A DNA stretch of 63,896 nucleotides, filler included, from Collodictyon triciliatum (GCA_043381765.1; 14 parts of 14 records of this genome joined end to end with filler, not necessarily neighbours in it); one strand, 5' to 3'. Positions 11,239-62,309 are shown, counted from the first letter of the whole stretch. The notes: a model not told the origin generated them from the sequence alone. Numbers and translations are program-made.

Positions 11239-12540
11239 TTTTTTCCTTTGTTCGATTCAAAGTGCAGCGAGGTTATGCCATACAAAGGGGCGGGATGGGA
11301 GCGCACGGGAGAGAGCAAACGCGAGGAGTAGAAGACACTACCGTGGAGAGTGTAGCACTGGAAAGAAGTCAGTGATAGCGAGTTGGTCAGATGAGCGACC
11401 CAACTGGTTGATTAGTTGCGTGGGTAGAAGGGTTTGCATATGCTGAAGAGATATCGCACGACACATTCCCACATCTCTCGGAAGTGGTTTGCAAGGTAGT
11501 CAGCGACAAAGTTGAATAGCAGTGGTGCAAGTGGGCAGCCTTGATACACCCCGCTCTGTCTTTGGATTGCATCCGTAGGTCCGTGTGCCGTAAGTACCCT
11601 CGCTGTTGCATCGTCGTGCAATTTCTTGATAAGACTGGTGAATTCGGTGCAGAAGCCTCTTTTGTGTAGGATGGTTTCCAGTGCTTCGTGGTTCACATAG
11701 TCGTATGCTTTCTCCAGGTCGTAGAAAATCATAGCGCGGGGTGTCCCGCTTACTTGATATTCCATGTGCTCTTTGTTGACAACCCAGATGTTTGTGTGGA
11801 TGTTTCTTCCGTTCATGAAGCCAATCTGCTTTTGGATATGAGTTTGTCAGCGATGGGTGATATGCGATTTCTGAGTAGCGTCGTAAATATCTTGTAGTCG
11901 TTATTCAACAGTGATAATGGCCGCCAGTCTGCAAGATTGCTTGAGTTTCCTTTCTTTGGTATCAGCCGCACTGTGGCCTCTGTAAATCCTTGCGGTAGGT
12001 CGCCACCAGACATGATTCCATTCAGAAAGGCCACCAAGGATGCCTTGACCTCATTAAAGAAAGCAGAGTTTATTCTGTTGGGCAGCCTATCTAAACCTGG
12101 CGCTTTGAGCCTCCCCGTCATCACCAAGTGCTTTACTGGCCCAGAGCTCTTTCCTGGTTCTGGATTGGGCTTTATTTAGGTTGTAATAAGTTCCAAGAGT
12201 GCGGAGTGCTCGGACGGAGAAGGTGTGGTTTGTTGTTTGACGTCGGACTGCTTTGAACAAGATATTTTTGAGCAGAGATATTCGTTCCTTGGAGAAGTCA
12301 AAGAAAACTACACAAAACATGGTGAGCTTCAATCTTTAGGCATTTGAGAATGAATTTGGGCTCGTCATTTCATTTGGATATTGTGGCAGTTATGTTGGTT
12401 GGTGCTGACGCTGTTTGCCAGAACTCATCATGCAATCCAGGTATTTGTGTCGTAATTCCATTTGGGCCAGAGGCGTCTAGCAAAGAGTCTGTTGTCTTTC
12501 GACAGCCTTATTGATTGGTTCCATTTCTTTGTCGTGCCCC
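11239..12540 (-). mobile_element. Degenerate L1/Tx1-like non-LTR retrotransposon (RT domain, frameshifted) followed by a putative 3' UTR and tail
   Basis: RT motifs KAPGLD, LIPKKG..WRPLSLLNNDYKI, DLEKAYDYV and GVYQGCPLAPLLF. There is a frameshift near 11820. YADD is replaced by YANP near 11430, followed by ~190 nt of non-coding sequence ending CTTTGAATCGAACAAAGGAAAAAA. Confidence 0.9.
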
Positions 12541-13880: not shown

Positions 13881-16800
13881 ATGGATTTCCATAAAATCGC
13901 AGGACTTTTTTATCGCCATAGATGCATGCACGTATTCAAATACATTTCTTTCACAAATACCATCAGATATATATCCTCCAGGAACAGAGCCGGTTGTTTG
14001 GTCTGCAAATGCATCCGAAATGAATGGCAATTTCCAACCCAGTCCATTTTATGAACCAAATAATACGGGTTACTCACTTGCTGATATACACGCTGCCTTA
14101 CAGCCAAACCAATCATTTTTTCATCCTTATCAACACCAATTACACCACTTTTATAACCATACGGACCAAAATATTCTTTCTCAGCAAGGCTATGCCTTGT
14201 ATCACCCTGAAGCACACTCGGGGATGGACTATGCATTTGAGCAGAATAAACAAGTCAACTCCGTCACACATCAAAGTACTGCCATATACCATAAAATAAA
14301 GCATTGTAATCGATACTAGACTTTTTTTTTAAAAAAAAAAAGCATATGTAATAAACGAAATCTTTGAACCTTTTCAAAACAATTAAAAAAATAACTGTAT
14401 ATTAGTTCATTCAGGGAATTCTACAAACTATGCAGAACACCCTCACTTTCCTTCGGCGCAGGAGAATCTCGGTTTAAACTCTCTTTGCCAAGAGAAGGAA
14501 AATCATATAACAGTTGTGGAGATGGAAATTGATGATAGCAACCATGCTCCGCCTGCCTCTTCATCGACTATGTCTGAGCTGCGTAAGATATATAACCTCT
14601 TCAAAAAAATCGCTTTGCAGCATATAGTTATATGCATTACTTTCTAATGGAATATGTGACATATATTCTGGTGTATTAGCTCCCCTGCCCCTTGAGGAGA
14701 GCATAGCCGAGAACTCCTCGACTGCAAACGAAACGAAGATTGCTGAAAGTGAATCCATCGAAAATAATGACCAAACTAGCGATGTAATTGATTTTGCCGA
14801 TGAAATAGACTATGAACAAGCCCCAGAATATCAACAATCAGACGTTTTCAACGCTGACGAGGAAAATGGGATTCCAAACGCTGGTATGGAGAATCAACCT
14901 TCTTTAAACGCTGGAGAACATCTGGCTTCCAATATAAGCAACACACAACATACTTTGCAAGACACAGGAAACTTCCAAGAGGCAGTACAAAATATATGTA
15001 AGGCTGGATTCATATGTTTAATACGCTTTTTATTATATTTGTTATTTAAATAAATAAAAAAACTGTTCCGATTCTCCCACAGCGAAGACTGTCCCTTCAG
15101 ATAATTCGCAATCGGTAGAGAACCATAAAGTGGTAAATAAACCACATATTGGTTCCGTCCAGTCGCCATCTCTACCAAGAAAAGTTCCAGCAATTCGAAA
15201 ATCTGTCCAAGAAGTCCAAATAGCGTCCACTGTCCGTAAACATATTTTGTCACCGAAAGGGTCTGTTGTGGCTACAAGCAACGAGAAGTCAAGCACCCCA
15301 CAAAATACGCTTGCCAAGGGAACGAAGTCTTTGCCAGTCCTAAAGAAAAGTTTAAGTAAGAAAATGATTCTTATGGACATCTAATTAAAATGTATAGAGC
15401 TGAAGGGAGTGTGCAGTTCAATTCAGATTCTTTTTCTAATATCTTTTTTTTTTTGCCTCGGTATACCTAATCCGAAATATGAATGTGACTTTTTATTCAC
15501 TTCTAAACATTTCAATCCTGCAGAGCCCAATGATGACAGTTTAAGCTACCAAGTGCCGTTTGTTTTCTATCTCGACCACGCCACAGACCGCAATCCTGAC
15601 TCCAATAGTGAGCTCTCAAGCCAACTGTCATCCGATGAAGAATATGAAGACCTATCTAAAATCTCGTTCCAATCCACAGTTTTACTCGAAGATTTGACAG
15701 GTAACACTAAATCACCCCGGCGTCCCACAAATATAATCACAAAAGAAACAAAACCACTGCAGTTGAGTACACCGGCGGATATAGATTCAAAATCACGCTC
15801 TTTTCCGTCGAAAAGAGCTTTTCAGTCAACTCCACATGAAAGGAAAAGCACCTCAGAATTAATCATACCAACTGATGTCCCTAGAAGAGCTCATGAAATT
15901 GAGAAAGAACCGAAATCATATGTTCCGCAATGTACAACAGATAATCATAACATCGAAGAGAAAAATACCTTAGAGGAAAATCATGTTGTATCCTTCGTAA
16001 CAGAAGTAGCGGGCCCGTCTGATTTAACTGTAGATGAGAAGGGGTCTTCTGAAACGACTATTCACAAAGATTCAAAAGTTTTATCAGAACCCTTCATTGC
16101 GACATGTTTTAACGAAACTGCAGCCCTGCCACTATCTGATGATTTATCCGTATCGGTTATCCCAGAAGTTTCTGAATCGCTGGGTGTCTCAAGAGATGAA
16201 ATCCCAACTAATGATACAAACATTCCACCCCAGAGTACGGCCAAAGATTCAATCATTGATGACACCTATGAAAATCAGAATGCTGACACCCTGGAGCTGT
16301 CTGAGTTGCGTGCCCAGGAAACCACTGCTGACATCGAATCTCCTAGTACTCTAGTTTTTTTTTAAAAAAAAAAAAACATATATCACGAGCTATGAGACAA
16401 TTGTCTCGTACAAAACGAAATATGGTTTGAACATTCACGCACTCTTCCTTTCTAACCTAAAATACTCGTTTTAATTTTGAAAGTAGCCTCACAGGATGTG
16501 AATATCTCAAGCCCCTCAAAAAATGGCAGGGAAAATACCAGCGCATGCATAAATCCTGTCTCGACAACAGACATGAAACTTGCATCTAAAATGCAGCCAT
16601 TGGAAGCAAGTATGGTTTGATTGTGTCTATAAATTGTTATTTTATTCCTTTATTTAATTCAAAGATTGCGTCGATAGATTAAAACTTCGGTGCATACCCT
16701 TCTCTTATCTTTTAACTCTGTTTTGCTTTGCTCTCCTTTTTTAAAGATAATAAATCAATCTCCAATTAATGCGCATTCTCCCAGACTCCTTTTCTTGCCC

Positions 16801-17675: not shown

Positions 17676-17740
17676 AGGCGTTCCTATCAAACCTTTTTTT
17701 TCTTTCGTTTATTCGATTCAAAGAGGCGCGCCTATCAACC
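17676..17740 (-). mobile_element. Micro-insertion (retroposon 3' tail) with imperfect ~17-bp target-site duplication
   Basis: AGGCGTTCCTATCAAACC (17676-17693) and AGGCGCGCCTATCAACC (17724-17740) flank TTTTTTTTCTTTCGTTTATTCGATTCAAAG. Confidence 0.6.
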
Positions 17741-20069: not shown

Positions 20070-22569
20070 CATGATTAAATAACAGTAATAACATAGAAAT
20101 AGAGGAATGTGAGAAGAGAGGTATTTCAAATTACCAAAGCAAATCCTTAATTTCTTCTCGGTCATAGAATGCCACTCCACCAACAAGCCTGTACATAATG
20201 CCCTTTCGAATAAACTCTTCTTCAATCACACGAGTCATATAGTGGTTCCTAAGAATATACTTTATCAGTGAATGAATATTCTGACAAAACAAAACAGACA
20301 AAAAAAAAAAAAAAAAAAAAACACAACAATGAAACTCTTACGAAAAAATGGGAGCGATAAATTCTCTATTTTTCAACAACACGTATTATTCTCATCTTAT
20401 TTACATAGACTCTCAAATACCACTACCGTGACCATAAGGAGAAAAAAAAAGAGGATTTTTTTTTTCACCTGCACAAGACAGCAACATCTCGAAAACTGAT
20501 AGCGTCATATGCCTTTAACTCAAGGATTTCTTTAGCAATCAGCCTCGCTTCATCATCAGGACTCTCTCTAGCGATTAAATAAACAGGAGGACCCCTAAAA
20601 TTGCAATATCTCATTATAAATAAACATATGATATAAAACAACTAGGAAAAAAAAAAGCCAAGAAAAAAAGGAGAAAAATCTGATAATTATAAATGTAGTC
20701 TACTATTCCAGGGAACAGGCGATCAATGCATTTTTTTGTTTTAAATTAAACCAACCTTGTGTTATCGGTCCACATATTTCCACGCTTGTTTTCTTTTAGG
20801 TCTTTCATAATAGAATTGGTACATCTAAAACCCACGTTAATTTTCAAGGTCATTACTAAATATATATTTGAGAAAATTCACATATTTTTTTTTATTTTAG
20901 TACCTTAGTAAATGAGTGGTTGAGCGATAATTTTGGTCTAAAAATACAGTTTGACAATTATCAATTTCCGAGAAGCGTTTAATATTTGTGAAATCAGCAC
21001 CTCTCCAACTATGAAAAATTAAATCATCAGACCATACTTTAGAAGATTTGAAAGTGACTTGATGATTTTTTTCTCTCTTTCTTTCTCTTTTATATGTTAG
21101 AATTTTAAAATTGAGTATAGCGATTGATCAAAATTGTACCTATATATACACTGGTATGGGTCACCTTTGACACGAAAAAAAAAGATTTTTAAAAGTTAAA
21201 CAGGTAACAATAAAAGAGATATTCACTGATCCCGACTCAGCAGCCCACAAGGACTTTTAAGAGACAAAGCAATACTAAAGATATTAGGAGATTCATTCTT
21301 CTCTTTATCATTACATTCTTCTACACGAAAAATAAAAAGGTATTATGAATCCTTACAAATGAAAAGAAAATAGAAGGGAAAAGGGTAATAAATATGAATG
21401 CTTGAAAGAAAGAAAAAGAAAAGAGTTTGTATAAAATTTTCCAATTAACACAAACCAACAGCAGTCACATTCTTATGAATATAAGACAGATGTTTGCATA
21501 TTTCAAATTGAAGCATATTTGTATCCTATTAGAAATTGTCCTCTCTCATTGAGATATCATATTTCCATGATACCAACAAAAATAAAACATAACAAAAAAT
21601 AGAAAAATAAAGATACATACATGAATAAATGAAAAAGTTACCTGAAATTCATCAATAAGCAAGTACCGGCATCCCATGGCAAAACGGTCTTTGACATCAG
21701 GGTGATTCTCGAAAATCTCCACAGTCTATTAAAAAATAGGATTAGATTCTCCAGGGTATTTACCAATAATATATAAAACTCATCAACCGTTAAATATATA
21801 ATATCAGATGATAAATAGATGATTACTAAGGACCTTCGTACACTATAATGTTTAGTTTCAAAGGTGGAAAAAAAAGAAAGAAAGAAGAAATAAGGCACTA
21901 TTAAACAAAATGGCTTATCGCTTTACTAACTTTAATCAAAAGATCATTAAAGTCCAGACCACCCATTCTTGTTAGGGACGCTTCGTACTTTATGGTAGAA
22001 TTAATTTACAGATTTTTTTACAGGGACGATAATGAGATAATACAACCAAAAATTTTATGTTTTGATAGAATGCATATACTTGGAGTGTAAGAATATAGAT
22101 TTAAAATTTAAATATGAATCTTATATTATACTAAGATGCAGCCATATTGACTTTAATTAATTGGATCAGAATTTTCAGAGTATGGTGAAGAAATTCGGGT
22201 TCGTATGTGCTTGTATAATTAACCTTATGCTAATAAAAATGACATACCTCAGTGTGGATTAGGTCGATCTTCTGATATAAATCCCGATGAAATATACGCC
22301 CGGTTTGAGATTTCATGTACTACAGATATAAAGGGCTCATAATTCACAGCAAATAAACAAAATTTATTTGAGATATTACAAATAACAGGTAGATGTATAC
22401 TCATTAGAATTTCTTTCATTCGACACACCTCCAAAGGACTCATTCTCAATCCTTTTGCAGAGTTGATAACGCTATTCGACGGTTCATGCAAATGAGATAA
22501 AGATAAATCTTTGCAAATTTTACTGACCAGATTTGAGCTATCCGCGGCATCACAAATAAAAAAGTTGGC
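18565..22569 (-). CDS. UvrD/PcrA/Rep (SRS2-like) SF1A DNA helicase, internal fragment, intron-rich
   Basis: Spliced exons give LDFNDLL, YLLIDEFQ|DTNMLQF, VG|DPYQCIYS|WRGAD, LDQNYRST, DVAVLCR, GGVAFYDREEIKDLL, INTPARGIG and VVISTLHSAKG. Confidence 0.92.
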
Positions 22570-23086
22570 CTTTTTTTGAATTCAAATTAATAATAAAATT
22601 AATAATAAAATTAATAATAAAATTAATAATAAAATTAATAATAAAATTAATAATAAAATTAATAATAAAATTAATAACAACAACAATAACAACAACAATA
22701 ATAACAACAATAATAACAACAATAATAACAACAATAATAACAACAATAATAACAACAATAATAACAACAANNNNNNNNNNNNNNNNNNNNNNNNNNNNNN
22801 NNNNNNNNNNNNNNTTAATTAATTAANNNNNNNNNNNNNNNNNNNNNNNNNNNNNNNNNNNNNNNNNNNNACATACATACATACATACATACATACATAC
22901 ATACATACATACATACATACATACATACATACATACATACATACATACATACATACATACATACATACATACATACATACATACTAATATATCTTGAATG
23001 AATATCTGAAATATTTAGACAAATTCATCTCAAGAAAAATCTCAAGTCAATATATTAAGATTTAAATAGGTTCTACATTATTTTAC

Positions 23087-24431
23087 CCTTTTGGAAGTGA
23101 GGAAGAGTTCTGTGCTTGAATCCTAAGGGAATACGTTCTCCTTTGACAGTTTGTTGACCCACGGCGGCAATCATTCGGCAAATGTTGATTTCACTTCCTT
23201 TGGAACCAGCTTTTTGCATGTGAAGGAAGCTGTTTGTGGATTTGAGGTTGTCAGAGATCCGCTTTCCTTCCATTTCCACGACTAGACCAAGGGAAGCAAT
23301 CGTTTCTCGCTCAGCGCTAGAGATAAAAAGGTCTTGGTTCCCTCGAGGCTGCTCTCGTAAAATTCTTCTTATATTTCCTACATCACTTATCTATGTTTAT
23401 CCTCAATACCAGGTAATCATATTCTCGCAGAATGAATAAATGACCCTACACAAAAAATAACAAAAGAATCGTTCACCATTAGCATATCCATTACTCGCTT
23501 GAACTTATCTTTGCTGTTCTGATCCACAATCATATCAGAAACGCCAATTCTGCATCAATAGTATGATTATTTAGATATAGGGGAAACATCGCGCACATGG
23601 AAGAGATGAAAAATAGGGTAAAAAGGAAATTATTACGAGAAACCTGGAGTCATTAACCAAATATTGACCAGCTGCTGAATTTGGCTCAAGAACCGACGAC
23701 ACAGTTCAACCCCATAGTCCAGGAAAATGATATGAATTAAACTCCCTGTGTAAAGATTTTTTTAATATATGTGCATCGAATGAATAAATCATAAGTATAG
23801 AACACGATGCTAATATTTAGAATCCTATTGTATGACCTCCTACGGCTCCTATCATTGATTTGTTCAATCTCCCGCAAAGAAGTTGACCATCCCGAATGAT
23901 AATGGACATATCATCAGTTTGAAAATATTGGTCAACTGATGCTCTGGTATGAAGTGAGTTAGAGCCAAGTTTGATAAAGCTTAAGTCCGGGAGTATCATA
24001 TAGATGATTTGCTTTCCACTCCAAAGTGGCTTCGGCTTTAAGATAGCTGGAGTTGGAATCTTGAAATTGAAGTCTAGTATCCAAGTGAGGATGTTCATCA
24101 AAATATCCTATAAAAAAGGTGTCGCAAGAATCAAACAAAAATGGATGAAATATTATCCTTATCTTTTCGAATAATCAAATTACTTCCTCAACATTACTGA
24201 TTTTATGGAAGTTATATAAAACCCATAGTAATACACTATTTATTTTGGAATCATATCACATGTTTTCTTGGAAGAAAATTTTTCACGAAATGTACCTTTG
24301 TGATGAAAGTATCCCGGCTGGTAATGAGATAACACGCTAGCAAACTGTCTTGAAAGATACCCATAATAGGTCTACCCAGCAAATGGAATATAGATTGGAT
24401 ATACTTAACGTCTGACGTAGTGTGGCGCATT

Positions 24432-24469
<38 letters not shown>

Positions 24470-24810
24470 AAGAAAATGCAACGTTATTTAAATTTGAATT
24501 TGTGTATATACGAATTATTCTGTGGCGTCATGAGCTGGCGAGGAACCATCATGATTTCTTCAATTTCAGATCTAATTACAAAGAGAGTACTTTTTTATAG
24601 TCTTATACACAGACATATCCTTTAGTGGAACTGTTTTACTTTATCGAAAATAGGATAGGTTTACTGCAGCTTAAGTGCTTGAAAAAATAACCTGGACTCT
24701 AGTGTCTGAGGTACATGGAGATTCATCTCATCTCCATCAAAGCGAATATTGTACGGGACAGTGACGAACAAATTCAGTCGAAAAGTCGAACAGGGCATAA
24801 TTCTTATACG

Positions 24811-24870
<60 letters not shown>

Positions 24871-27133
24871 TCAATGTTTTGATTAAAATTGTGGGATATC
24901 TGATTTTTATACAAGACCTCCGAAATTCAAATGACTGAGTTGTTTAAGAAATAGATATACCCCATCATTGACATTTTGTGAAGAGAAGGCTGACGATTAA
25001 GTATGCAAACATCTCCGTCGACAAGATGTCTCTCAACCTTAAAATGCATGAGAAAGCATGTCGATAAAATAAGTAGAATTTGATATGAATTTCACATAAA
25101 ATCGAGTATATAGCTTGATTGATCTGAAAAAAAATCCTTCATTCGATTGAAGGAATTTGATCTGAAAATATAAAGTACATGGTAGTGATGAATTTTTAAT
25201 TATAATAATGATGATTATGGCTTACAACATCTCCATAATTTAGGGGAATATAAAAGTAGTCTTGTTTGAGGTTCAAATCCTCTCTAACACCATTCTCAGA
25301 GGTAATGTATCTAGCCCCAGGGTACTGGCTCGGACCCCTGTCAACCATCTTCTGGAGCTTGTTCTACATATGGTGGGGCGTTTCGTAGGGAAAAAAATGA
25401 ACACCCTAAAATAAAAATAAATTCCATAATAGACATATGCAACCATTCATTTTCGGTTAAATTTATTTACGATGACAAATTGAACTATGCATATTGTATA
25501 AAAGAGTGAAGCAAAAAGATATATGAAATGCGGCATTACCTTGTTGTGTTTGTTTGTTTTTTTTTCCTTTATTCGATTCAAAGTCCTTGTTGTGTTTGTT
25601 GACAATTTCAGGAACGGTCAATATATTCGCTATGGAACGAGGAACTCCAACCTCATCAATCTCAAGGTTTGGGTCTGGTGAGATGACTGTGCGGGCAGAA
25701 AAATCAACATGTTTTTCCGTGAGATTTTCTCGAATTCGGCCTTCTTTTCCTATCAGTCTTTGTTTGATTGACTTTAGCGGTTTTCCATTTTTGCAAAGCT
25801 TCTTCAACTCGCTATCATGATTTTCGTCGTTATCCATATATGTCGCCACGAGAAACTGCAGTTCTTCCAAGACGGTTTTGAGTTCATGCTCTGGACTTCC
25901 CTTCTCCTCCAGTTCTTTGTATTGCGCATTTAGCTTAAGAATCCCAGAAATGAAATAGGTCAGGTCGTCTTCTGTTCGCAAGGATGAGCCCACCGTCACA
26001 AACGGACGAACGCAGATTGGAGGAACTGGTAGATTTGTGATGACGAGCCACTCAGGGCGGCAGAACTCTGGATTCAAGCCGAGGACAAGGCAATGTTGGT
26101 CTGATATTCCCTTAAATACGTCGTGGACACATTCTGCAGAGAATTCTGACCCATTCAGAACGGGTTGTCGGTTTTGGGTCGCAGCTGCGTTGGCCTGGAC
26201 TTCAGCCCCAGTGTTTCCTGCCTCAGTACCACTGTGTGTTGTTCTCGGGCGCCACTTTGCGCGGATCTTAAGAACTTTCTTAGAGAACTTTGGCTGCTCA
26301 TAATTGCAGTGAGGGCACCTTCGAACAGCGGTGCATCGTTTCCTGATTTCCTTGAATCAGTTTTTTCTGTTCCCTGTGGATGCAACGAAAAGATGCCTGT
26401 TTTCGTCATGATTCTGATTGTGGTTTAAATAATTTTCACATATTGCAACCATAAATTGCAGATAAAAAAAAAACAGGATACCGTATATTAATTGAAAATG
26501 AAATACAGTTACATAAACAAGAATGTAAATAAGTAGAATGAAAGGGAGAGAGTGGAAGAGAAAATAATGTGCTTTGTATGAGAAAAAGTGATATGATCGT
26601 ATTTAACTCAAGTCTTAAAACTATTTAGTACTAAATTTTGATGAGAATAAATCAGAAAATTCTAAACAACTTTTTTTGCTTCATAAAAATAAAGTTAACC
26701 TCATCCAAAAGAATTTTGGAGCAATTGATGCAGACACACTTGAGGATTTCTACACAGGCATTCATGAATCCAATGTGAAAGACACGTCTGGCTAGTCTTA
26801 TGTACCCGAAATGACCAGGGCAAGAGTCGTAGTCCAGGTGGCAAGTTTCACCATTCAAACTATAATGTGGTTGTGAGTGAATGAATTCATGACTGAACTT
26901 ACAATATCTAAAATAAAACTATAAGACACTACTTTATTTAAATTTGATAAGCGTCATAGAAAACATGGATAGAAAATGAATCAGAAACAAATGATTTCCC
27001 TAAGAAAAACTATTCAAGGCTTTTACCTATGGTGTGCACCAATCTTCAGGTCATACGAACCTTGGGAAACCGGCTTCGCACTCACAGGATCAAACAGGTG
27101 ACTCTCAGTAACTTCCACAGCCCCCATATCGGC
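23087..27133 (-). pseudogene. Divergent RNA polymerase II largest subunit (RPB1)-like paralog, N-terminal half; probably inactivated
   Basis: Motifs [65 protein letters not shown] and RTLPHF. The active site reads [11 protein letters not shown]. There is an in-frame TGA at 26357-26359 and a 46-nt frameshifting insertion at 25539-25584. Confidence 0.85.
25539..25600 (-). mobile_element. 30-nt retroposon-tail insertion with a perfect 16-bp TSD
   Basis: CCTTGTTGTGTTTGTT occurs at 25539-25554 and 25585-25600. The insert between them reads ACTTTGAATCGAATAAAGGAAAAAAAAACA on the minus strand. Confidence 0.85.
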
Positions 27134-27621
27134 CTAATACACATGGAGTATGAAGGTGTATATATGACGAAATTATGAAAGGGAGATAATATTTATGTGT
27201 ATAAAAAGTTTCATGCAGATTCTCTGAAGGATTACCAAGGTGTAACCCCAAAGACTCCACAAGAGGCTCCCCTTCCACTGCGGACAAAGACCCAAACGTG
27301 CCCTCCAACTCGGCAGGCACGCTCACAGGCAAAGCCGCACCCNNNNNNNNNNNNNNNNNNNNNNNNNNNNNNNNNNNNNNNNNNNNTTAATTAATTAANN
27401 NNNNNNNNNNNNNNNNNNNNNNNNNNNNNNNNNNNNNNNNNNTCTTCTTCTTCTTCTTCTTCTTCTTCTTCTTCTTCTTCTTCTTCTTCTTCTTCTTCTT
27501 CTTCTTCTTCTTCTTCTTCTTCTTCTTCTTCTTCTTCCTCTTCCTCTTCCTCTTCCTCTTCCTCTTCCTCTTCTTCTTCTTACCCTCTCTTTTGCTACCC
27601 GGACCAGATTTTTCCTTCCAG

Positions 27622-28290
27622 CCTATCCGCGAAAGCCGCGGGTGGAATCTGCGAGACTGCCGCCCGGCATTCCCATGGGAAACGGACGTGAAGGGGATGT
27701 GGGTTCTGATGGCAGCCGTTTCCAGCGATATCGGACTCATCTCATACACCATCCGCAAAGCAGGCGTGAATCCTGCGTTCATGAGCGACTTCCTCAACGG
27801 CGTCGTGGCCCTTGTAGAGCGCAACAGTGGATTGGCGTCCCATAGACTCTTTGTGGTGGACGCGCCTTCAGGCGACTCAACCCGTGACGGACGAGAATGC
27901 TACTTCCCGGGCCTAGTCGGAATCCACATTGCCACGCTCCCGCCATACTCTGCTTTTCTGAGCCCCCTGGACGAGGCCTTTGCCGCGTGGAAGCATCGCT
28001 TCTGCGAGTTCATCCACCAGACCGACGAGATTGCGGGTCACCGCACGGCCGAGGATCTGATTCGCGAGGCGTCCAAGGAACTCACCAGTGCCTGCTGCTT
28101 CAAGTGGATGGACACTGTCCGTCGCTTCTGGCCCGAATGTGCAGACTCGAAGTCCATCTCGGCAGAAATGATTGTGGAGCGGGCACAGGAAACACCCGAT
28201 GTGTTCCCACTACATCACCACCCGCGCACGCTGTATCTCTCGGAGAACGAAGTGTCCTTCATGGCGCCGCCTCTTGCCCATGATGGCTGA
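27622..28290 (+). CDS. IS630/Tc1-mariner DDE-domain-derived terminal exon
   Basis: VLMAAVS...GL, FVVDAPS and LPPYSAFLSPLDEAFAAWK match the DDE_3 pattern (DNA; LPPYSPxLNPIE). It is preceded by a pyrimidine tract and a cag acceptor at 27621. The frame is uninterrupted and no TIR was seen. Confidence 0.7.
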   Translation, partial: PIRESRGWNLRDCRPAFPWETDVKGMWVLMAAVSSDIGLISYTIRKAGVNPAFMSDFLNGVVALVERNSGLASHRLFVVDAPSGDSTRDGRECYFPGLVGIHIATLPPYSAFLSPLDEAFAAWKHRFCEFIHQTDEIAGHRTAEDLIREASKELTSACCFKWMDTVRRFWPECADSKSISAEMIVERAQETPDVFPLHHHPRTLYLSENEVSFMAPPLAHDG

Positions 28291-28673: not shown

Positions 28674-31600
28674 TCACATGCGAGAGCGCGCGATGGCTCC
28701 AATCACCACAACACCAGCCAAGATATAGGGGAGAATGCGTGAATTTTGCAGAGTCTCGATCAATTGGATGCGTCGGAGCTGTGTTGCATAATAAAGAAAC
28801 GGAAAGATTACATAGACAGATTGAAATATCGATAAGTCATCTTAAAAAAGAGAGAGAAAGAGAAAATGAAAGAGAGCTAAATTGTGCATGACGAATATGC
28901 GTCATTAAAAAAAGAAAAGCCAGGGGCACTTTTGTGTAGAAGATTTTAATCACAACTATATTTCCTTGTTATCTTTTTTGGTACAATACATAAGGGTGTA
29001 AAGAAAGCGATGCTTAGAGTGTTAGGTAGATAAACACCTTCTCATCCGTGTACGGTGGATAGCGCAGAGATGGGTCGAGAAAAGTGCCCTGTTAATATAG
29101 AAACTGCATATTAACTAATCGTCTATATTTACATAGTCATTTTGTATCCTATTATTTTAGGCTCGGTACGCAGCCTAGGGTGTGTTTTGTTTCATTTAAA
29201 ATTGTTTTCATAAAACTTCCAACTTGCACTAATTTATAGGAATGTACCGTTCGAAAGATTGGTTTGTAGTGGCTAAACGCATCAAATCCGGCCTACATGT
29301 GAACGAGTAATCATATTTTACGTTTTAGTATTCAAATGCGGTGGGCATTCCGACAACATGGTGTGATTGGCTCAAAAACCTTTGAGTGGTAGGCCCCCAT
29401 TCCGCTGCTTCCTACTCCGCCAAAGGGCAATGCGCCCGCAATTTGCATGATGGTATCGTTGATGGCAACGCCTCCGGAAGAAGTGCGAGCAATTACCTAG
29501 TTTTCGAATTTATCAGCATATGTATTGGAATATAACCGTTATGTGTAGCATTCTCTTCTTTGACAAGGTATTAAAGAGAAAAAAATGAGCCGAATCATAG
29601 AAAGGAAAAAGGTAAGTTTCTACACCTTTTCTTGTATCTTTTGGTCAGAGGTGAAGAGATAGAGGGCAAGAGGCTTCTCTCTAGGCGCATAAATTCACAG
29701 GTGCATGAATAGTGTTAGCATAGTCATTCTTTAAAATAAAATAAAAATGAAAATATAATAATTGAAAAGTAAAACTCCATGATAACTTTTATGCAATTGC
29801 ATTATAAATCAAATTTATTTAACCGGCAAGAACATTATGTTTTGTTGGATTAGTCATATCTCTATACAATTGTGTTTTGTTTGTCTCAAACCTTGCGTTG
29901 ATGAACCGAATAGCCTCATCAACATCCTTGATTGTGAGAACTGCGATGATTGGACCGAAAATTTCGGATTCCATCAGTTTCGACTCTGGCTTCACAAGTG
30001 CGATTGTAGGAGAGATGAATTTTTGGGCAACGTCAACGACTCCCCCGTGGACAATTTCGATGGAGCTATCCTCCAGCAGGCTGTGGCAAGTTTAAATTAA
30101 GTTCGAAGAAAGTGTATACATGTCAGATTCTGAAACCAGGGAGGAATATATAAATGCAGCAATTCATATCAAGTTGAAGCAACATATTTATATATGTACT
30201 TGGCCAGTCGCTTGCAGTGTCTCTCGTTGATTATGCGGGAGTAGTCAGAGCTGACCTTGGGGTCTTTCGAATAAAACTCTGCAATCGTTTCTTTCATATT
30301 TGCGATCTGCATATGAAAATAAGGGAATAAGACCAGTCGCTTCATGTTTGTATTGTGCCTTGAACGATAATACATCAAAAAGAAAAATCCATGAAGGATA
30401 GGCATTTTTTTTCTTTAAAGTAACATAACACAGCGCGAATGAAATCAAAGAAAAGCATACAAGTTCATCTCGAACACTTTCTTCCACCAAAATGTAATCA
30501 GGAGACACACAAGTTTGACCGTTGTTCATAGAATACTACGAAAAAAATCAAAAATATCAATCCCTGCGCTTTTTCTTTAAAATAATATTAATAATCGGCA
30601 ACATGCTGTGTTTTACACCGATTTTTATATTGTCTTGGTAGCATGATTGAAACTAAAATTGAAATGACCAACCTTTCCCCATACAATTCGGCGAGCGGCA
30701 ACTTTCAGATTGGCATCAGCAGTAACAATAGTTGGGTTTTTACCTTAATGGGGGAATAGGAGATAATGAAAGGAAGTGGCACATCAAAAATAATCTGATT
30801 AGATATAAAATCGAGAGGGATAACAGACATAGGAGAAGTGGGATGCCTGACAAATTTTTGTAATAAAAAGTAATAAAATACTACTAAATAGAATTTAAAT
30901 TTTTTTTTTAAAAAAAAAAAAAGAAAGGAGAGCTTCATTTTGCCAAAGTACCTCCAAGTTCCAACACAACAGGAGTCAAATGTTTTGCTGCTGCTTGCAT
31001 AACAATACGACCAACCTCGGTGTTTCCTGTATAGAAAATAAGATCGTATCTTTCTGCAAGAACAATGGATGTAACGCCAGCGTCCCCTTCAACCTATTTA
31101 GACCAGTGTTGCATGTTAAGATTCTAAATCAAATTTTTGTCATATGTAATGGAAATCGTGCTCATTTGTCTCTTAGTTAGCATGTGTATACCACAGCGAA
31201 GCAGTCATTATCCAAATACTTTGGAATCAGTCTTGAAATCAGCGCACTCACATTTACGGATACCTGTTTTAATTGTCAAATTCAAGAGTATTTTGTCAAA
31301 ATTAGTGACTGAGTATGCGAATCAAAAATGATATCGGGGTGCTTTTAAGTTGATGGTACCTCGGAGGGTTTGATGAGCACGCAATTTCCAGCACAAATGG
31401 CAGCAATCAGGGGGGAAATAATGAGGCTCACTGGATAGTTCTATACAGCATTTTATGAACGAATAACAGATATAAATGCGCAACAATACAGTCAATCTTA
31501 TGAAAAATGCTTCGGCCTTCTATAAACCCGTTAGGATAGGATAATTTTAAAAAAAAATTGTATATTATCTGGGTCAATTAAAAGTTGGGAGAAACTTACC

Positions 31601-31731
31601 CAAGGAGAGATAATCAGCACCAAGCCATATGGTTCAGGTCTGCAATAAGACTTTGCAAAGGCAGCAGCTGGCGGATTAGGGTAAACGACTTCCTTGACCC
31701 ACTGATGAACGTGCTCCCTCGCCTCCTTTAG
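28674..31731 (-). CDS. ALDH3: Aldehyde dehydrogenase family 3 (fatty aldehyde dehydrogenase-like), 5'-partial
   Basis: [48 protein letters not shown] (catalytic Cys), [20 protein letters not shown] and LRYPPY. The last exon ends ...[12 protein letters not shown]. Confidence 0.92.
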
Positions 31732-31817
31732 CTGGTGAGATAATTAAGTGGTTGTGATTGTAATGTGGATATTCAGTAATGAATGGTGATATTAATAAAT
31801 AAATAAAAAAAAATATT

Positions 31818-40221: not shown

Positions 40222-40779
40222 GTGTATTCTCTTCCTTTTTTTTTTCTCTAAGTCGGTATTATATTGTTAAACGGTTTACTCTCTGCGAGGCCACGGACAA
40301 AGCAAAGATAATCCCAGACACGAACTTATGCCGCTTAAATGTAAAGAAATGGGACGGCTCGTTCTTGGCTGGACTGGATCTCCAAGCCGACCCTCACTTG
40401 TGGCGCTCGCCTTCTTAGAGCCCACATTCTCAAGGACACGCTCCTGTTTCTTTTGGATGGTGATTCATCTGCGATCTGATGGTCTTCTGGATATGGAACA
40501 AACAATGAAAGAGTCCCAATCAAGCATTTGGCCACACTTAGCAAATTAAGTTAGGTATATAATATGTACTTATACTGAATTCTAGTTTATCAAGGGATAA
40601 TATTGAATATTATAGAAATTTGACACAATAGATATATATTTTCCGCATATAATTTAAACCTTTTCTTCCTTCACAAGGACAAAGGGTGGAAGCGAAGCTT
40701 ACTTGTTGGGCGACCGAGCAGAAGTACCCAGGCCATGGCGGTTCTCAACTTCGCTTCACTTGCTCAAAGACATAGAAAG

Positions 40780-41054
40780 TACATGGAATATCAAGTAAGC
40801 GGGACACTCCGTGCTATGATTTTCTACGACCTGGAGAAAGCATATGACTATGTGAACCACGAAGCACTGGAAACCATCCTACACAAAAGAGACTTCTGTA
40901 CCGGATTCACCAGTCTTATCAAGAAACTGCACGACAATACAACAGCGAGGTACTCACGGCACACGGACCTACGGATGCAATTCAAAGACAGAGCGGGGTG
41001 TATCAAGGCTGCCCACTTGCACCACTGCTCTTCAACTTTGTCGCTGACTGCCTT
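40780..41054 (+). mobile_element. Second copy of the L1/Tx1-like RT fragment (5'-truncated, frameshifted)
   Basis: It is near-identical to 11493-11767 (minus strand): about 13 substitutions and one deletion in ~275 nt by manual count. Confidence 0.92.
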
Positions 41055-41156
41055 NNNNNNNNNNNNNNNNNNNNNNNNNNNNNNNNNNNNNNNNNNNNTT
41101 AATTAATTAANNNNNNNNNNNNNNNNNNNNNNNNNNNNNNNNNNNNNNNNNNNNCG

Positions 41157-52064: not shown

Positions 52065-52071
52065 AGCCACG

Positions 52072-54601
<2,530 letters not shown>

Positions 54602-58100: not shown

Positions 58101-59216
58101 GTTCATATATTACCTTTGAAAGTTTAATTTGAATGTCATATCTTCACCATCCTGCACAAAATTGAAAGGAAGAATAAAAAAATAAATTTGAATGTCATAT
58201 CTATATTTTTCTGTTTGTATACACCGACTGTATCTTAGAAGTATGTAACCACAGGATTTGAATTCGAATCTCATATATACCAGAAGATGGGAACAGTGGA
58301 GCTCCAAGACCAGGTAATTTTGATTTTAACAATCATTTTGGTGTAAAATAATTGTATCTTTTTTTTTTTTTTTTTGCAACTAGTAGTAGTGAAATGCAAT
58401 CGACAAAACCTTTTTATTATTCCAATGCGATGTAGATTATCTTACTTTTAATCTATTTCATCTGATTTGTACCCATGCTATTTAAAATTATCTCACTGCC
58501 TACTTGAAACTGTTTATGGAGCTACTCATGTTTATTTTGATAATGAAATATGTCTATCAACCATGCAATAAATTATGATTGCAGTGACACGAAACTAATT
58601 TTTTCTTGTTCCTCGGAACCCCATAGATTCAAGGGCTCGAGTACTTAAATGCTCAAGGACTGGTCGACACTGAGCGAATCGCAATCTATGGATGGTTTGC
58701 TTGTCATTACTTTGATAAAAACAGACAATTATATCAATAATTACTTCATGTACATTTTGTTTGTCATACCAGGTCATATGGTGGTTACATGTCCCTAATG
58801 GGCCTCTGCCAGCATTCCGACGTATTTCGTGTAAGAAAAGCGATAACATCGATGAGGGCCATTTCCCCCCTTTATTCGATTCAAAGACCTATGACATCGC
58901 TCATATTAACGCAAGCACAAACGATACTTTGACAAATAATCGTCCATAATCAACCTCCCAACCACAGGTCGGCATATCATGTGCTCCGGTTACTGACTGG
59001 CAACTCTACGACACAGCATACACAGAACGGTATTGTCTGTTATCATGCATGTTAATATATACCCACGCCGCTTGGTAATATCTACAGCAACCGCCCCATA
59101 ACTTACAAGAAACAATACTTTTATCCAAAATCAAGATATATGAATTTACCGTCTGTTAATGCCACTGGATATTCGAATGGCTCCGTCCTCACACGGGTCA
59201 ACGGGTTTCCGAACGA
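55184..59216 (+). CDS. DPP9: Dipeptidyl peptidase 8/9-like (peptidase S9B), internal fragment
   Basis: EEFDRYTGYWWSP, KYPTILYVYGGPHVQ, LDGRGSNHRG, GW|SYGG (catalytic Ser) and APVTDWQLYDTAYTER|YM. Confidence 0.92.
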
Positions 59217-60849: not shown

Positions 60850-62203
60850 CAGAAGCTATGGAATTGTATTATTATCTATGGTAAGCGCTCCTCTCCTTAT
60901 GGTCCCTGTATATCAATTCATTACGCTCCATTAATCATAAGATCGCAAACACGCAGTCCTTTTTTTTTCTAGCGACATTCACCGTAGTTTTTTTTTTAAA
61001 AAAAAAAAAGAAGGAAATGCTTTGTATGCTTAATTATTATCTCCATGATATTAAAAAGAAAAGACATGCTTTCATTTAAAAATTCACTGCATCAAATAAT
61101 TAAGCAAACTTTTTCAGAGCCCATGCCTCTCGCCATACTTAAGGTTGTTTTCTTTTATTAGTTGAGGCCCCTTTGAAGATATTACAAAAAAAATGATCCA
61201 TGCTATATACGGCATTATGAAAATATGAAATTATCACATTCACCTGAAAAATCATAACAATAGATAATTGCTATGGTAATGAAACATACATATACATTTT
61301 GATGAGATATAGTGTTACCTCATTGACACTGAATGTTTCTAATAGTTATTATTCGATATATTTCTCGGGTAAGTATCATTGGGAGCGACTTGCTTGAGAG
61401 ATCCATCGACATTTTTTTAATTAATACGGATTCGAATGTTTCTGCGCGTAGGAAGAGCTACCTCGTTTCAAATATTTAAATCTGCCATCAATATTTATAT
61501 TTTTTTCATTATACATTTCAATTTGCGCAATATTAAATGTCTAAGCTTTAGTTTGTCAGCTGTCACTTGCATGGATGTAATTCAGGGTCGGGTGACGAAG
61601 AAGTAGTTGATCCCCAAGAATTGCGTCATACCGTTCGGTTGGTAGTATTTGCTGTGTACTTGCATTTTAGTTTAATCAAAGAAATGTTGCATGATTTATA
61701 CATGCGACCCTCGATACTGCGATATCTTGCAATAATCCAAAATTATCGATCTTAAATGTATCTTCCAATTTAATCTGATTGATATGTATCTTCTGGTGTT
61801 TAGATTTTATTATGAGAACATAAATTTTTTGGTGCTAAGATATTGCTTTTCGAATGTTCCTATTTATACGTCTTATTTCTCTTGCAAAGTCCACCTTAAA
61901 ATTCATGGAGTGCGCGTTTATAGTATATTCAAGCTTATCCAAAAAATTGTTTGCATATAAACTATCATAATGTAATTCATATGAAACCAAAATAGCTTTT
62001 GTTAAAAAAAGTACCAAGTAAAGTGCACATGTTAGAAACTGCACCCTCAGTGCTCGGGTGATCTGCATAGAAACGATATCCCAAAAATAAGAAATACAGG
62101 TAATATTGGAGTCGTAGAGACTCGTTTGATTTAATATAGATATGAATATCTGCACCTCATAGTTTTAAATGAATTTTACTGTTTTTCCCGTTATTAGATT
62201 CAA

Positions 62204-62309
<106 letters not shown>

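Follow-up and report, generated by a model that had tools for sequence, protein, structure and literature searches.

A gene on the minus strand of positions 22871-27342 of the window, by which we mean the whole 63.9 kb stretch of DNA analysed, appears to encode an RPB1-type polymerase subunit with a rewritten catalytic centre. Its metal-A motif reads NIRFDGD for NADFDGD, and further changes are found in switch 2. We slightly favour the explanation that selection maintained this gene as a non-catalytic Pol II-like paralog and that the assembled copy was damaged recently.

The RPB1-type gene and its contig

Fourteen contigs make up the window, apparently in order of length. Thirteen of them measure about 4.47 kb and the last one ends short at the window's end. 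They are joined by linkers of the form N44-TTAATTAATTAA-N44, for example at 22771-22870 and 27343-27442, and according to the table of N runs the contig with the RPB1-type gene comprises the 4472 bp at 22871-27342, with a linker on either side. As the contigs are separate, which genes lie next to each other across a linker is meaningless and not usable as evidence; the contigs adjoining 22871-27342 are unrelated to it.

The gene model consists of 12 exons with 2284 nt, or 761 codons, contains no stop codon and spans approximately residues 20-809 of canonical RPB1, i.e. RPB1 domains 1-4. A tblastn search with a canonical RPB1 (P0001) matched residues 68-809 as separate pieces in different frames. 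Enumeration of splice sites yielded a frame-keeping GT-AG pair at the place predicted by homology for all junctions except that between exons 3 and 4. Ten of the 11 introns are GT-AG, and in the eleventh (exon 3/4) the AG acceptor is kept and the GT donor has been moved by an insertion. The introns are 86-328 nt long and have a G+C content of 18-33%, compared to 44% for the exons. These data show that the exon-intron structure is real. A processed pseudogene (retrocopy) is ruled out by the presence of 11 introns of this length.

All exons are on the minus strand. Exon 1 (27027-27133) aligns approximately with residues 20-55 of canonical RPB1; its first in-frame ATG is located at 27127-27125, with a TAG stop immediately upstream. 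Exon 2 (26671-26859) holds the Zn site and the CPGHFG block and matches the Pfam family RNA_pol_Rpb1_1, and exon 3, in its extent before the insertion (25586-26342), covers domain 1 and the beginning of domain 2. Exon 5 (24961-25037) retains the invariant Arg and Pro, and the metal-A loop lies in exon 6 (24692-24814), which matches RNA_pol_Rpb1_2. RNA_pol_Rpb1_3 was found in exon 9 (23837-24107) and RNA_pol_Rpb1_4 in exon 12 (23087-23390). Exons 4 (25226-25363), 7 (24512-24571), 8 (24296-24371) and 10 (23637-23745) were placed by tblastn together with splice-site enumeration, and exon 11 (23477-23549) by splice-site enumeration. Exon 12 ends with ...HRTLPHFQK plus one G at the donor GTAAAA in phase 1, and therefore the gene continues past the contig; beyond the exon there is a (GTAT)n repeat followed by the contig end. 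Hence, it is the contig end that interrupts the gene, which is not truncated. The bridge helix, the trigger loop, domains 5-7 and the CTD are off the contig.

The opposite contig end (27244-27342) is rich in G+C. Its first 57 nt, 27244-27300, adjoin the 5' end of the gene and are a repeat or mobile sequence outside the gene: they reach a depth of up to 48 in both freshwater metagenomes that were searched, where the sequence below 27244 differs. A possible upstream exon at about 27236-27300 was rejected, because it is frame-incompatible with exon 1 and belongs to a repeat that has another continuation in metagenomes.

The RNA_pol_Rpb1 domains of Pfam occur in order and all exceed the gathering cut-offs, with 63 and 169 bits for domain 1, 55 and 58 bits for domain 2, 49 bits for domain 3 and 72 bits for domain 4. 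Among solved structures, Pol II RPB1 matches the model with 194 bits (E 3e-56), archaeal Rpo1N with 171 and RPC1 with 114 bits, and none of the 60 structure matches listed is a chain named as the largest subunit of Pol I. The best database matches are CTD-bearing eukaryotic RPB1s. Judged by these matches, the gene is to be classed as RPB1-type and not as RPC1.

Several other contigs of the window carry recognizable coding sequence. An exon similar to DHX15/Prp43 at 52066-52389 (plus strand) has its best match, at 67%, in the EukProt transcriptome of the collodictyonid Diphylleia rotans, with plants next at about 55%. Judged from this one exon, the host is probably a protist that has been sampled little, and not an animal. 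The remaining assignments were made by eye. The contig at 18299-22770 contains pieces of a UvrD-type helicase-like ORF at 20465-22581 on the minus strand (LLIDEFQ..., ...NYRS...). The contig at 27443-31913 shows a G+C-rich ORF at 27443-28290 (plus) with a DDE-transposase-like motif, ...PPYS..L.P.., and aldehyde dehydrogenase-like exons at 29300-31750 (minus). Two intronless ORFs at 3428-4312 (minus) and 6425-7363 (plus) correspond to a protein-kinase-like sequence of 294 aa and to 312 aa of tandem WD40-like repeats, respectively. A scan of the window against Rfam gave no match.

Catalytic centre and zinc site

The metal-A motif is located in frame within exon 6 at 24730-24750 on the minus strand. 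The plus strand reads atctccatcaaagcgaatatt, and its reverse complement, AAT ATT CGC TTT GAT GGA GAT, is translated as NIRFDGD. In comparison with NADFDGD, the first metal-A Asp is replaced by Arg and the Ala by Ile; tblastn aligns the region with P0001 without gaps. In switch 2, ENLTEKHVDF takes the place of GNLMGKRVDF at 25700-25729 (minus), as aligned to solved Pol II chains and to P0001. Two Gly, a Met and an Arg are lost here, the Arg being exchanged for His. At the canonical first Zn ligand, a Cys, the panel alignment places the codon GGT (Gly39) at 26850-26852 (minus). The sequence GETC at 26852-26841 (minus) stands against C-x-T-C in the panel, and the Zn site of the window is consequently G-E-T-C...C-P-G-H, the canonical arrangement being C-x2-C-x6-C-x2-H. 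All three departures had been read from the sequence by the first-pass annotation, which left the strand of the metal-A motif unstated. The alignments described here bear them out, at 25729-25700 for switch 2 and at GETC for the Zn site, and the codon table agrees with the annotation that at least four base changes separate GCN GAY from ATT CGC.

Among the universal invariants that are retained are NRQP (N411, R412, Q413, P414), the second and third metal-A Asp, the switch-2 Lys of GKEGR and the SKGS of the funnel. A set of eight residues that do not vary in any two-barrel RNA polymerase, even the most aberrant ones, is reported to include the three metal-A Asp, R446 and P448 (PMC2919709). The same source describes switch 2 as gripping the template strand and the yeast mutants K332A and R344A as prone to abortive transcription (PMC2919709). 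The yeast numbers K332, R344, R446 and P448 were assigned to the present sequence by motif position. [quoted passage not shown]

Among the 150 nearest cluster representatives, a regular expression detected the metal-A motif in 102 (no motif in the other 48), and D-x-D-G-D is kept in all 102. For switch 2 the motif was detected in 100 of the 150 (no motif in the other 50), with G-K-R kept in every one of the 100. The statement made earlier that DFDGD is essentially invariant, plant Pol IV and V included, agrees with the 102 of 102 representatives and with the passages of PMC2919709 and PMC2605557. Judged from these comparisons, the changes at metal A and switch 2 are most probably real and exceptional among the nearest homologues.

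The reading of the motif comes from the assembly alone: among the pieces shown from two freshwater-metagenome runs, no read or contig of the same organism over 24730-24750 was seen. Short metagenome matches at 24730-24750 and 24961-25000 are less than 90% alike, and their continuations are canonical NADFDGD genes of other organisms.

Damage to the assembled copy

The donor of exon 3 is displaced by an insert of 30 nt at 25555-25584 (minus). The insert is the 3' tail of a retroelement and consists of a 19-mer with AATAAA followed by A9. It is flanked by a target-site duplication of 16 nt, one copy of which (25585-25600, minus) comprises the last 15 bases of exon 3 and the G of the donor. The other copy (25539-25554, minus) is 100% identical and precedes the displaced donor GTAATG with its GT at 25539-25538. 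The direct repeats are perfect (16/16) and spaced by 46 nt. With up to three mismatches the 19-mer, [A/T]CTTTGAATCGAATAAAGG, was found at five further sites in other contigs (11245-11263, 16647-16665, 17706-17724, 58869-58887 and 62188-62206, all minus), with 0.03 expected by chance. At several of these sites it is followed by an A-rich run, and one site lies downstream of reverse-transcriptase-like ORFs. Such ORFs were noted at 11412-11846 (minus) and 40624-41106 (plus). The repeated 19-mer probably represents the 3' terminus of a family of retroelements, and since it is common to several contigs it ties the RPB1-type contig to the same genome as the other contigs. By its structure the insert is a young, heavily 5'-truncated retroelement insertion with target-site duplication.

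Splicing at the retained GT (25539) adds 46 nt and shifts the frame, with a stop at codon 374 as the result. The first-pass annotation, which took this copy to be disabled, was right in so far as the retroelement insertion is a frame-shifting lesion of the disabling type. The insertion could be bypassed by way of GTCAAC, a cryptic donor after 25604 that keeps the frame at the cost of six residues.

Among the sequencing runs listed there was no RNA run; two freshwater-metagenome DNA runs, which contain 5-6% of the words, yielded three contigs with 97-100% identity to parts of the gene. One of 239 nt differs from 26744-26982 by two substitutions (about 99% identical), one of them synonymous and the other one being GGT (Gly39) versus TGT (Cys). 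A contig of 151 nt matches exon 3 exactly, and the third one shows one exon change and three intron changes relative to 23294-23444. Over all, differences amount to 3/364 positions in exons versus 4/177 in introns, which is not significant (P = 0.22). We read the change from Cys to Gly as a second young lesion that is private to the assembled copy. Since a metagenome contig carries Cys39, the organism, a close relative or a sibling copy exists in which at least one of the lesions is absent. Probably a gene that worked until recently is represented here by an allele or copy with fresh damage, and with a frameshifting insertion and the Cys-to-Gly change this copy may already be dead.

Relatives, constraint and rival explanations

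The search for relatives covered 1.84 billion cluster representatives, drawn from about 15 billion proteins, of which the best 150 were examined, and two word searches over 5.8 billion proteins, with the best 120 matches each. The best 150 representatives show 39-59% local identity to the model; no sibling or orthologue is among them and none shares the changes of the catalytic centre. The lists of both word searches are equally flat and contain no sibling. In JGI metagenome contigs, 154 pattern matches led to six confirmed relatives with 39-42% identity, five of which are intronless across the matched region. The canonical NADFDGD is present in five and GNLMGKRVDF in four of them, and the altered motif in none. 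A search of IMG/VR for close relatives found none, and one motif pattern gave no match there. A second pattern gave a single match, which was rejected: it is a viral RPB1 in which an inserted element splits NAD|FDGD, without a true exchange of Asp for Arg. This IMG/VR contig (L007:1-1942) codes for a giant-virus-type RPB1 interrupted inside the metal-A motif, as ...YNAD is followed by ...FDGDEMN in another frame about 0.8 kb on; this points to an intron, or to insertion of a mobile element, at the catalytic loop. The intact siblings that had been thought possible were thus not found among the best 150 representatives, the best 120 matches of each word search, the JGI contigs or IMG/VR.

The identity of the model to 108 full-length RPB1s is 42-49%, compared to a mean of 76% within the panel. 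Some of the divergence from other RPB1s (about 45-49% identity) may predate the paralog's own branch. For the phylogeny that had been suggested as a check, 93 sequences were selected and those covered by less than 60% were dropped, leaving 88 tips and 691 columns. FastTree places the model on a long branch (0.82) together with four CTD-less metagenomic sequences, which are intronless and come from contigs of 5-75 kb; local support is 0.95 for the group of five and 0.62 for the sister pair. The pairwise identity of the model is 42-44% to the CTD-less group versus 46-49% to CTD-bearing animal and fungal RPB1s. Since its identity to the CTD-less group is the lower one, long-branch attraction is likely and we do not trust the placement.

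Constraint was assessed by the columns that the model keeps: 91 of 101 panel-invariant, 115 of 159 near-invariant and 128 of 458 other columns. This profile is within the range of 74 divergent, catalytically intact homologues, and the gradient may largely come from a parent gene. A set of 49 universal invariants was defined as columns invariant in 183 aligned sequences with one exception allowed. The model keeps 44 of them and has five private changes (G308E, R310H, A446I, D447R and E676R), whereas the other 182 sequences have a mean of 0.19 and a maximum of three. The alignment around E676R is poor, and this change is less certain. The other four form two tight pairs, one in switch 2 and one in the metal-A loop (resampling P = 0.02). 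The clustering is also seen at the level of bases and residues, with four base changes in six bases at metal A and four residue changes in seven at switch 2, and the flanking invariants are intact. In line with the annotation's remark on conserved structural blocks, the remainder of the sequence appears constrained: the 761 codons contain no stop, GT-AG is found in ten of 11 introns and 44 of 49 universal invariants are kept. In our reading, selection acted to keep the product open, spliced and folded, and it was specifically in the catalytic centre that constraint was presumably lost or changed.

How far this carries depends on the alternatives, the most serious of which is an unprocessed pseudogene. 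It would be a decaying DNA-level duplicate of a divergent RPB1 of the host, in which all changes are neutral and a non-catalytic function never existed. The frameshifting retroelement and the private loss of a Zn ligand are what such a copy should show, no sibling or orthologue turned up in the collections searched, and the part of the gene that is available is one half, on a contig of 4.5 kb. The conservation gradient, too, could stem from a functional parent, as divergent genuine RPB1s show the same profile. However, if neutral, the change of five out of 49 invariants implies about 10% amino-acid divergence, and in a neutral simulation this divergence produced about 3.9 stops on average with a probability of 0.005 for no stop in 761 codons (0.14 at 5% divergence), under a simple mutation model in which the present sequence stands in for the ancestor. 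Moreover, GT and AG are intact in all introns but one, the changes are clustered at metal A and switch 2 next to untouched invariants, and the insertion, with its perfect duplication and pure A9, is young and does not explain the older changes of the active site. Taken together, we regard neutral decay as unlikely, although it deserves to be taken seriously.

Two further explanations have considerably less in their favour. A gene of foreign origin, endogenised from a giant virus or another source, provided with introns and now degenerating, would fit the tree grouping with CTD-less, intronless metagenomic sequences, but several observations argue against it: the pairwise identity is higher to RPB1s with a CTD, the 2.3 kb of coding sequence are split by eleven introns of the spliceosomal type, a retroelement family is common to this and other assembly contigs, and the searches of IMG/VR found no relative and, as the sole motif-pattern match, a false positive. 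We consider it improbable. Even less credible is a sequencing or assembly artefact, in which the odd codons would be errors or the contig a chimera. The assembly is indeed very fragmented, this contig ends in repeats and the metagenome runs showed no same-organism read over the motif. On the other hand, the substitutions affect several bases in frame within well-aligned exons, other parts of the gene recur in three metagenome contigs of two independent runs, and the insertion has the anatomy of real retrotransposition.

A selection-maintained, non-catalytic Pol II-like paralog thus remains the explanation that we prefer. Its product is predicted to fold and could assemble like RPB1, and polymerisation of RNA by it is very unlikely. 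Purifying selection would have kept the gene for its fold, and probably also for assembly with partner subunits, after RNA polymerisation was lost, and the protein might act, or have acted, without catalysis, as a Pol II-like scaffold, a competitor or a binder of nucleic acids. The annotation had gone further and postulated a non-catalytic or neofunctionalised lineage that diverged under selection. In this proposal the RPB1 type, catalytic-centre changes unique among the nearest homologues and the constraint on the rest are supported, whereas a lineage was not found: there is one member, and the sole hint of a further copy or allele is the 239-nt metagenome contig with Cys. We tentatively propose a more specific version, which we would not yet expect to hold: a freshwater, deep-branching protist keeps a catalytically dead paralog, a 'pseudo-polymerase', under purifying selection, with Arg in place of the first metal-A Asp and a remodelled switch 2; intact alleles circulate, as hinted by the metagenome variant that retains the Zn-site Cys, and the product serves as a non-polymerising scaffold or competitor on DNA or RNA.

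Compared to canonical RPB1, the copy has domains 1-4 in order, RPB1s as its best matches and most of the universal invariants, but it differs in the first metal-A Asp and the Ala, in ENLTEKHVDF, in the Zn-site Cys and by an identity of only 42-49%. The largest subunits of plant Pol IV and V (NRPD1, NRPE1) are likewise derived from RPB1, strongly diverged near the catalytic centre and, as described in passages of PMC2605557, engaged in a non-mRNA role. In contrast to the present copy their Metal A is kept, and neither a plant ancestry nor the C-terminal domains of these subunits are in evidence here. A second RPB1 gene is also known from a protist, the ciliate Oxytricha; of its development-specific paralogs RPB1b and RPB2b, the latter has been suggested to serve in RNA binding or trafficking, outside transcription (PMC5312943). 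RPB1b/RPB2b are expressed, and passages of that paper do not report loss of catalytic residues, whereas here a catalytic Asp is lost in a gene known from sequence alone. The Rpb2::Rpb1 fusion of yeast killer plasmids, Qde1-type enzymes and phage enzymes are extremely divergent relatives of Rpb1 that, according to passages of PMC2919709, keep all eight invariant catalytic residues; the present copy does not, though it is far closer to RPB1. Finally, an unprocessed pseudogene would resemble it in the retained introns, an insertion that shifts the frame and a harmful missense change, one of each, but not in the absence of stops, the splice dinucleotides intact in ten of 11 introns and the concentration of changes in the catalytic centre. 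A full-text literature search found no report of an RPB1 paralog without one of the metal-A Asp. By its sequence the copy is best described as RPB1-derived and lacking one of the three metal-A Asp that mark a catalytic subunit, and would be a novel variant if functional.

If it is merely a decaying duplicate, the gene amounts to an ordinary pseudogene of a protist for which sampling is poor. If the preferred explanation is true, an RPB1-derived protein without one of the metal-A Asp has been kept by selection, i.e. a pseudoenzyme form of a central subunit of transcription. This would raise the question of what a Pol II-shaped complex does without catalysis, for which promoter occupancy, competition for shared subunits and the handling of RNA or DNA are possible answers.
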